64,000 nucleotides of DNA from Escherichia coli (GCF_003334315.1 NZ_QOWR01000021.1), one strand, 5' to 3'; counted from the first letter of the stretch, positions 21,861 to 21,960 are shown. Notes: generated by a model from the letters alone, not told the origin. Program-made: numbers and translations.

Positions 21861-21960
21861 TGCCTGATGCGCTACGCTTATCAGGCCTACACGGAGATTG
21901 CAATATATTGAATTTGCAAAGTTTTGTAGGCCGGATAAGGCGTTCACGCCGCATCCGGCA
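21861..21960. repeat. BIME-1/RIP-type element (REP-Y, IHF-like L motif, REP-Z)
   Basis: tgcctgatgcgctacgcttatcaggcctac ... caatatattgaatttgca ... gtaggccggataaggcgttcacgccgcatccggca; near-identical copy at 52027-52126. Confidence 0.85.

Follow-up and report, generated by a model that had tools for sequence, protein, structure and literature searches.

The yphH-glyA spacer raises the question why about 100 bp of it recur almost unchanged in a second spacer 30 kb away, and what such a sequence does at either place. In the stretch of Escherichia coli DNA analysed here (64,000 nt, referred to as the window), positions 21861-21960 (copy A) and 52027-52126 (copy B) had been predicted to be near-identical BIME/RIP elements (RIP, repetitive IHF-binding palindromic element). 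Both lie, as anticipated, between convergent genes: copy A between yphH (plus strand, stop at 21801) and glyA (minus strand, stop at 21999), copy B between srmB (plus strand, stop at 51975) and yfiE (minus strand, stop at 52184). Each spacer contains a single unit and no tandem array. A 4.5-kb stretch comprising yphG, yphH, glyA and hmp was 99.3% identical to positions 2,681,500-2,686,000 of MG1655, parts of the window were 100% identical to strains such as CP53, and K-12 has both copies at identical loci, copy A corresponding to about 2,684,116-2,684,215 of MG1655. As a whole, the observations are best explained by independent members of the BIME-1 family situated beside terminators, which would have arrived there by trans-mobilisation and would now act as modest 3'-UTR and IHF modules; this explanation is considered very probable.

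The ungapped comparison of the two copies, which have the same orientation and are 30,166 bp apart, showed 90 identical positions out of 100 and confirmed the predicted pair. Three blocks were identical throughout, namely the Y REP (30/30), the L core TGCAATATATTGAATTTGCA (20/20) and the Z REP (35/35), together 85 nt, while the short linkers, correctly predicted as the only differing parts, matched at 2 of 8 positions (linker 1) and 3 of 7 positions (linker 2), i.e. 5 of 15. In the repeat search, both copies formed the longest direct repeat of the window, extending over 136 nt (21850-21985 and 52016-52151) with an identity of 86%.

On the plus strand, the copies begin with a Y REP in its short form with a CTAC end (21861-21890 and 52027-52056) and finish with a Z REP starting with GTAG (21926-21960 and 52092-52126), all of them without mismatch to the respective consensus. 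The predicted label REP-Z was correct and could be refined to the z1 type (GCCGGAT...ATCCGGC); a tandem array at positions 144-320 of the window contains the z2 type (GTCGGAT...ATCCGAC). In both copies, the CTAC and GTAG heads face each other across a linker of 35 nt with an identical core of 20 nt. As read from the sequence, the L linker of copy A (21891-21925, plus strand) is composed of the variable ACGGAGAT, the L core at 21899-21918 and AAGTTTT, and that of copy B (52057-52091, plus strand) of GTGGCTCA, the L core at 52065-52084 and CGATCTT. Compared to the IHF consensus, which is WATCAANNNNTTR, the minus strand of copy A carries at 21901-21913 the site ATTCAATATATTG with 8 of 9 specified positions matching, and the IHF-type site of copy B was located at 52067-52079, also on the minus strand. 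A conserved AAAA tract lies 5' of this minus-strand site in the L core. In the family profile the L-core columns reached 1.7-1.9 bits, a conservation of which 18 of the 20 columns were fixed by the scan pattern itself, and the single variable column lies in the NNNN of the IHF consensus. Folding of copy A gave an imperfect hairpin of -8.4 kcal/mol with a 2-nt bulge for the Y REP and a hairpin of -12.2 kcal/mol with a 2x2 internal loop for the Z1 REP, while the whole 100 nt folded as a single strand into one long hairpin of about -45 kcal/mol (z of -4.5 to -6.5).

The predicted composite of REP-Y, IHF-type central motif and REP-Z is borne out by its match to the published architecture of BIME-1, which is defined by y and z1 REPs in inverse orientation, a single copy, a long conserved L linker and a frequent IHF site (PMC3333891; PMC2817692). 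The same class of element is named RIP in PMC2892488 and is also defined in PMC3184786; for BIME-1, RIP and RIB, the works cited in PMC2817692, PMC3184786 and PMC3333891 are Gilson 1991, Bachellier 1994, Boccard & Prentki 1993 and Oppenheim 1993. In both copies we found the inverse Y and Z1 REPs, the L linker, the IHF consensus, the single unit, the extragenic 3' placement and the flanking arms described below, and no difference from BIME-1/RIP/RIB was observed. Both stretches are ordinary BIME-1 (RIP/RIB) members, equivalent to a REPIN, and since BIME-1 has been known since the early 1990s, the observation re-identifies two already known repeats. Like the RAYT-mobilised REPINs (PMC3116915; PMC3337134; PMC8049555), they comprise inverted REPs and a spacer as one replicating unit, and they share with REPINs the single-hairpin fold of the whole unit and the strain-variable presence (PMC3116915). 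They differ from REPINs by the extra conserved arms, and whereas BIME-1 often shows a hairpin-length duplication, target duplications and terminator targets were not found in the REPIN literature searched. BIME-2 is built from similar REPs, but has neither L linker nor IHF site, is tandemly amplified and combines the long Y form with Z2. The array at 144-320 is of this type, a tandem (Z2-Y)x2 of two 91-nt units that are 95% identical, and at 195-266 on the minus strand an Rfam match to naRNA4 (CssrE, RF02564) was obtained with 72 bits.

The predicted size of about 100 bp holds for the core, whereas the whole element comprises about 150 bp and forms a non-coding, imperfect palindrome, since conserved flanking motifs belong to it. 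A family scan with the L-core pattern TGCAATNTATTGAATTNGCA (one genome per species, at least 120 stretches) revealed 84 complete Y-L-Z1 elements among the matches listed, which originated from Escherichia and Pseudocitrobacter species. In the Escherichia sampled (E. coli, E. albertii, E. whittamii and further Escherichia spp.) and in Pseudocitrobacter, nearly every L-core match was flanked by Y and Z1. The isolated L-core matches in other phyla, among those listed, had no REPs beside them and agree with chance occurrence (about 9 expected), except for a few tiny contigs resembling E. coli contamination. Across 63 elements among the matches listed, a profile showed conservation over about 23-24 nt to the left and about 29-30 nt to the right of the 100-bp core, resulting in a consensus unit GAGACTGATGACAAACGCAAAAT-core-TGAACAAAGCGCACTTTGTCAGCAATCTG of about 152 bp. 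The ends of this unit, GAGACTGATGACAAA and TTTGTCAGCAATCTG, are inverted repeats with 12 of 15 positions complementary, and both contain CTGA. We take the flanking arms to be the extra-REP motifs A and B of BIME-1 as defined by Gilson 1991. In copy A, the left arm ('A motif', GATGATCATAAACGAAAAAT, family consensus tgagactgaTgacAAAcGCAAaAt) occupies 21841-21860 and the right arm ('B motif', TGAACAACGAGCACATTGACAGCAAATC, family consensus tGAACAAAGCGCACTTTGTCa.cAAtcTga) 21961-21988 on the plus strand, and the strain-variable segment begins at 21841 and ends at 21988. The left arm is 4 nt shorter than in the E. albertii ortholog, which retains CAGACTAAAGACAAACG. In copy B, the left arm at 52005-52026 matched the family consensus and the right arm at 52127-52155 the family profile (both plus strand), and the insertion boundary after 52004 was set by comparison with the empty ST131 and O157 alleles. 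The segments absent from empty alleles, 148 bp for copy A and 151 bp for copy B, both fit the unit of about 152 bp.

At copy B the unit lies between two copies of the srmB hairpin, while the empty strains (ST131, O157) have one. The left copy, AATGCCAGGTTTAAGCCTGGTATTA at 51980-52004 (plus strand), folds at -6.6 kcal/mol and is not followed by a T-run. It is identical in 20 of 25 positions to the right copy at 52156-52180 (plus strand), which is followed by TTTTT at 52181-52185, and the yfiE stop codon overlaps this T-run. The empty allele of ST131 and O157:H7 comprises a 32-bp spacer with a single terminator, CAATGCCGGGTTTAAGCCCGGCATTG and then TTTTT, and the single-copy hairpin of ST131 was called by the terminator scan as CAATGCCGGGTTTAAGCCCGGCATTG + TTTTTATCCC. 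The right hairpin with its T-run is likely the srmB terminator in this strain.

The same signature was widespread in the family. A flanking direct repeat with a score of at least 9 was determined for 32 of 80 elements among the matches listed, compared to 1.3% of 2,000 permuted flank pairs; with a stricter cut-off it was found in 30 of 75 elements among the matches listed, the permuted control of 1.3% belonging to the score cut-off slightly below this one. Typically, the left repeat stops 23 nt short of the core and the right one sets in 29 nt after it; the length of the duplication, about 13-36 bp, varies together with that of the target hairpin. Stable GC-rich stem-loops make up at least 16 of the 30 flanking repeats, and often an A-run precedes the left repeat and a T-run follows the right one; loci with a hairpin duplication include L015, L028, L032, L033, L048, L052, L090, L111, L119 and L127. 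Duplication of the hairpin by insertion was confirmed by a second before-and-after pair, uspB-pitA in E. coli. Here, the empty allele reads AAAAAAAGCGGGCCAGTAAACTGACCCGCTCG directly followed by TTTTGG, i.e. a single hairpin and then the T-run, and the filled allele of K-12 MC4100 contains the unit at exactly this junction and then a second hairpin copy (L133:236-505 compared to L132:236-332). This site is filled in 1,940 of 5,426 E. coli genomes. For the argG-proximal element of E. whittamii no empty allele was found, and the E. coli gene arrangement differs there. Copy A has a hairpin on its left side only and shows no duplication. Altogether, it appears that the unit enters the junction of hairpin and T-run in intrinsic, often bidirectional, terminators and duplicates the whole hairpin. 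In general terms, BIME-1 would be a mobile unit with sharp boundaries and inverted-repeat ends, about 152 bp long, which would enter exactly between stem-loop and T-run and duplicate the entire hairpin (13-36 bp, hairpin-sized); this is put forward as a tentative and still somewhat doubtful proposal.

The fact that the duplication length tracks the hairpin suggests cuts at the hairpin foot on each strand, and such cuts would duplicate the hairpin by a plausible route. They could result from a structure-directed cleavage, for example by a REP-associated Y1 nuclease with an extruded cruciform or single-stranded DNA as its substrate, and TnpAREP would be a candidate enzyme. This candidate is suggested by its recognition of REP hairpins and its cutting at nearby CT dinucleotides (PMC3333891), together with the CTGA in the unit ends. 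In vitro, both REPs and BIMEs are bound and cleaved by the Y1 nuclease TnpAREP (RAYT), whose binding needs a 5' GTAG tetranucleotide and a stem mismatch (PMC3333891). As substrate features of this kind, the copies comprise the GTAG/CTAC tetranucleotides, which stay unpaired in the folded REPs, the 2-nt bulge of Y and the 2x2 internal loop of Z1. According to a 2026 preprint, the mechanism of insertion or mobilisation in vivo is not established (bioRxiv 10.64898/2026.03.23.713779), and a reproducible signature of fixed ends, hairpin/T-run junction and whole-hairpin duplication would constrain it. No mention of the hairpin duplication was found in the accessible REP/BIME/REPIN/RAYT literature, and the older work of Bachellier 1997 (Genetics) and Rudd 1999 may describe it; the terminator-hairpin duplication flanking BIME-1 units is the item worth carrying forward. 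Tandem repeats of unit plus hairpin were observed in Escherichia sp. E1V33 (L078:1700-2150, 173 bp) and in MOD1-EC7003 (L130:50-450, 162 bp), which fits an unequal exchange between duplicated hairpins.

With MITEs, especially YPAL of Yersinia, BIME-1 shares a small non-coding unit with inverted-repeat ends, the insertion just after stop codons or terminators, the co-transcription with the upstream gene and, in 30 of 75 units among the matches listed, a target duplication. De Gregorio reportedly found in 2006 that YPAL of Yersinia targets rho-independent terminator-like sequences and carries target duplications. However, a fixed length of the duplication is typical of DDE transposition, whereas that of BIME-1 corresponds to the hairpin with about 13-36 bp and a HUH Y1 nuclease is presumed. 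Bacterial class C group II introns are said to insert just after intrinsic terminator hairpins (so Robart et al. in 2007), and their position directly 3' of a terminator stem-loop likewise suggests a structure-based target recognition. In contrast to BIME-1, these introns are retroelements with a self-encoded reverse transcriptase, and the hairpin stays single on their insertion. YPAL of Yersinia is listed in a table of PMC3184786.

For copy A, the hairpin on the left side is the stem-loop AGGCTTCC-CGAA-GGAAGCCT at 21820-21839, which folds at -9.7 kcal/mol as DNA (z = -5.0), adjoins the copy and, based on folding and the empty alleles, constitutes the terminator hairpin common to yphH (plus strand) and glyA (minus strand). 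The empty allele has 14 bp in place of the 148 bp at 21841-21988, and its hairpin is followed by TTTTTT. The filled and empty alleles of copy A do not differ by a clean insertion or deletion. Since E. albertii carries the element, the filled allele is old, and either direction of change would be compatible with the replacement of 148 bp by 14 bp. In strains that have copy A, TTGATGAT takes the place of TTTTTT behind the yphH hairpin (21841-21860 compared to L002:375-395). The yphH terminator in these strains is without its T-run, and yphH may read through into the element, antisense to glyA. The simple terminator scan called no terminator in either spacer of the window nor in the empty yphH-glyA allele, where hairpin and TTTTTT are visible by eye; the terminator of the empty srmB-yfiE spacer was called. 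Since the scan called none in the window, the terminator assignments there rest on the hairpins and the empty alleles.

Because each copy lies next to the intrinsic terminator hairpin in its spacer, the elements are placed in 3' UTRs, copy A in that of glyA (read from Z1 to Y) and copy B in that of srmB (read from Y to Z1). The glyA message on the minus strand comprises right arm, Z1, L, Y, left arm and the hairpin 21839-21820 followed by UUCUACGUU, and its 196-nt 3' UTR folds at -79 kcal/mol (z = -6.8). The srmB message comprises the left hairpin without a U-run, the element from Y to Z1 and the right hairpin with UUUUU. In a bidirectional terminator, each of the convergent transcripts would cross the element before a complete terminator is reached, and if this is true, each convergent gene would retain an intact terminator beyond the element. 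The glyA 3' REP region was reportedly described by Plamann and Stauffer as an early case of REP-dependent mRNA stabilisation. In general, REP hairpins in 3' UTRs protect the upstream mRNA from decay and attenuate readthrough, and REPs are found in 207 of 704 convergent gene pairs, with both genes of REP pairs being more highly expressed (bioRxiv 10.64898/2026.03.23.713779). Binding of IHF to the L linker is described at the level of the class in PMC2817692 and PMC3184786, which cite Boccard & Prentki 1993 and Oppenheim 1993; in the IHF ChIP literature searched, no site-level data were found for glyA or srmB.

Among 5,426 E. coli genomes, 1,933 contain copy A and 2,525 contain copy B. Since roughly half or more of the E. 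coli genomes do without them, the copies are dispensable, and the large number of strains without both copies indicates that any function is weak or conditional. Nowadays, they would represent modest, dispensable 3'-UTR and IHF-site modules. Of the other explanations, the one that survives best regards the elements as remnants of a selfish mobile repeat that are now inert and serve no function at the DNA or RNA level. It would account for the absence of both copies from about half or more of the E. coli genomes, for the 5-6 substitutions that E. albertii and strain C9 have in the Z1 arm of copy A, and for the insertion sequences interrupting copy B in some strains. Nonetheless, Y, L core and Z1 show the perfect consensus in both window copies, although the insertions are old, as E. 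albertii and a cryptic Escherichia lineage show by their orthologs, and a perfect consensus in old insertions points to conservation or repeated correction. For the class, moreover, binding of IHF and effects in the 3' UTR have been documented (PMC2817692; bioRxiv 10.64898/2026.03.23.713779), and complete inertness is considered unlikely. In the copy A orthologs of E. coli C9 (L004:321-560) and E. albertii (L014:2150-2375), the Z1-arm substitutions are mostly G>A and C>T, while Y, L core and flanks are unchanged; judged from these sequences, a decay or mutation hot spot is apparently confined to this one hairpin.

Another possible interpretation would be that the L linker is a real minus-strand small-RNA gene (ES036/CssrF) with the REPs being incidental. 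Rfam RF02751 matched the L linker of copy B at 52049-52091 (minus strand) with 49.9 bits, above the gathering score of 37.6, and that of copy A at 21883-21925 (minus strand) just below this threshold with 34.2 bits. However, the same 43-nt model also matched the L linker in 7 of 10 other, unrelated BIME-1 loci from four species. RF02751 therefore models the repeat and not one gene, and the match is not evidence of a dedicated sRNA gene. The promoter scan found no promoter-like site in either spacer, and since the minus strand of copy A is inside the glyA 3' UTR, an RNA from there would more simply be a 3'-UTR fragment. In the literature search, no paper describing a function of ES036/CssrF was found. 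Based on the general match to BIME-1 linkers the sRNA gene was rejected, and we regard it as quite improbable.

The original prediction also named gyrase sites, and the elements might mainly act as such sites or as supercoil barriers between convergent genes. Binding of REPs and cleavage of BIMEs by gyrase are documented (PMC6379681; PMC3184786), and positive supercoils accumulate in convergent spacers. As a refinement of the prediction, the preferential cleavage concerns BIME-2 rather than BIME-1 (PMC6379681; PMC2817692). Genome-wide, cleavage is enriched in BIME-2, mostly at long y REPs, and slightly depleted at IHF sites (PMC6379681), whereas both copies are BIME-1 with the short Y form. 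A main role in gyrase action is accordingly very improbable.

This leaves the similarity of the two copies itself, which could mark a specific link between the loci if they were recent duplicates or a gene-conversion pair. The identity of 90% with three blocks identical over 85 nt would agree with this, as would the same orientation at a separation of 30,166 bp. Compared to the family, however, the pair is not unusual. Each of the 5,426 complete E. coli genomes contains the L linker, with a median of 24 occurrences, a lower bound at the sensitivity applied, and the 84 elements among the matches listed showed a mean pairwise identity of 88% over the 100-bp core. An identity of at least 90% was reached by 36% of their 3,486 pairs, and as the identity of copies A and B is matched or exceeded by these 36%, the identical blocks are the family consensus, which many copies in other species match perfectly. 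In similarity the pair ranks 26th and 35th of 83, so that among the matches listed 25-34 relatives are closer to each copy than copy A is to copy B. The fast-evolving linkers agree at only 5 of 15 positions, which is close to random, and each copy has an ortholog at the same locus with matching linkers in another Escherichia species, namely E. albertii for copy A and Escherichia sp. E1V33 for copy B. Further orthologs at the respective locus were found in a divergent 'E. coli' (copy A) and in a divergent E. coli strain (copy B). Copies A and B are independent family members, neither of which was copied from the other, and the close pairwise relationship, already contradicted by consensus, linkers and orthologs, was rejected as extremely unlikely. 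The term 'near-identical' hence describes the 90 of 100 matching positions but not a close kinship, since family pairs average 88% over the same core. Likewise, the copies exceed generic REPs in their shared composite architecture, but they are no closer to each other than any two BIME-1 elements.

Further, the two copies had been suspected as targets of recombination, with strains differing by a rearrangement between them. An unequal exchange would create the junction srmB-element-glyA by tandem duplication or yphH-element-yfiE by deletion. Neither junction was found in any of the 5,426 E. coli genomes, where the best match with 67% coverage was the normal locus, which contradicts an exchange between copies A and B. 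As a target of insertion sequences, on the other hand, copy B was confirmed. IS1397 is inserted in its Z1 loop after GCGTTC in E. coli AF46 (L005:1600-1760), and IS621 in its Y REP at AGGCCT/CTAC, with CT on either side, in E. coli 2013C_3277 (L006:130-330, 1390-1640); both are REP specialists (PMC1525189). With the presence or absence of the element in both spacers and the IS1397/IS621 insertions, the yphH-glyA and srmB-yfiE spacers represent intergenic polymorphism hot spots.

Finally, the minus-strand frames with the start MRRERLIRPT, predicted as spurious and indeed beginning in the Z arm of both copies, are open over 35+ codons from 21954 in copy A and over 85 codons (51863-52120, by translation) in copy B, and RefSeq places a hypothetical protein at the yphH-glyA spacer in at least one genome, but the chance that they encode small proteins is negligible and coding was rejected, since the frame begins inside a palindrome repeated dozens of times per genome, runs on into whatever sequence adjoins each copy and, in copy B, runs antisense into srmB. 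One genome with this annotation is E. coli C21-2 (NZ_CP146893.1), and its hypothetical protein is probably a repeat-derived spurious ORF. Both the spurious ORFs and the Rfam 'sRNA' match are explained as by-products of the repeat.

Beyond E. coli, many E. coli-type BIME-1 units were observed in Pseudocitrobacter spp. (L024-L035, L045-L053, L117-L124), with the linker consensus AAGGTTTC and the Z1 loop GTTTAC. Several of these units show perfect hairpin duplications of 16-30 nt, which suggests a more recent activity of BIME-1 in Pseudocitrobacter than in E. coli. A 261-bp contig from a Methylobacterium frigidaeris assembly (L115) comprises a core identical to copy A at 100 of 100 positions with differing flanks, and was rejected as a recent copy. 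It was not found intact in any of the 5,426 E. coli genomes, with at most 73% of its length covered, and is treated as a chimeric contaminant contig. Perfect BIME-1 elements were also present on two further tiny contigs, L113 of Alkalicoccobacillus porphyridii (720 bp, coverage about 1x) and L073 of a Collinsella MAG, and all three elements most likely reflect enterobacterial contamination.

Within the window, a lone Z-type REP without GTAG head and without partner REP was observed at 11519-11550, with a complementarity of 100% to copy B's Z1 arm across 32 nt. At its 3' end (51576-51975), srmB is only 98.5% identical to K-12, and for this part an identity of at least 99% is reached by just 211 of 5,426 genomes; compared to the 99.3% identity of the yphH-glyA region to MG1655, this hints at a mosaic ancestry across the window. 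The other Rfam matches above threshold were AsrC (antisense of rseC), rncO, ohsC, GlmY and 5S rRNA, at 44751-45582, 41754-41968, 38265-38341, 28938-29085 and 63817-63932, as expected for a K-12-like region.
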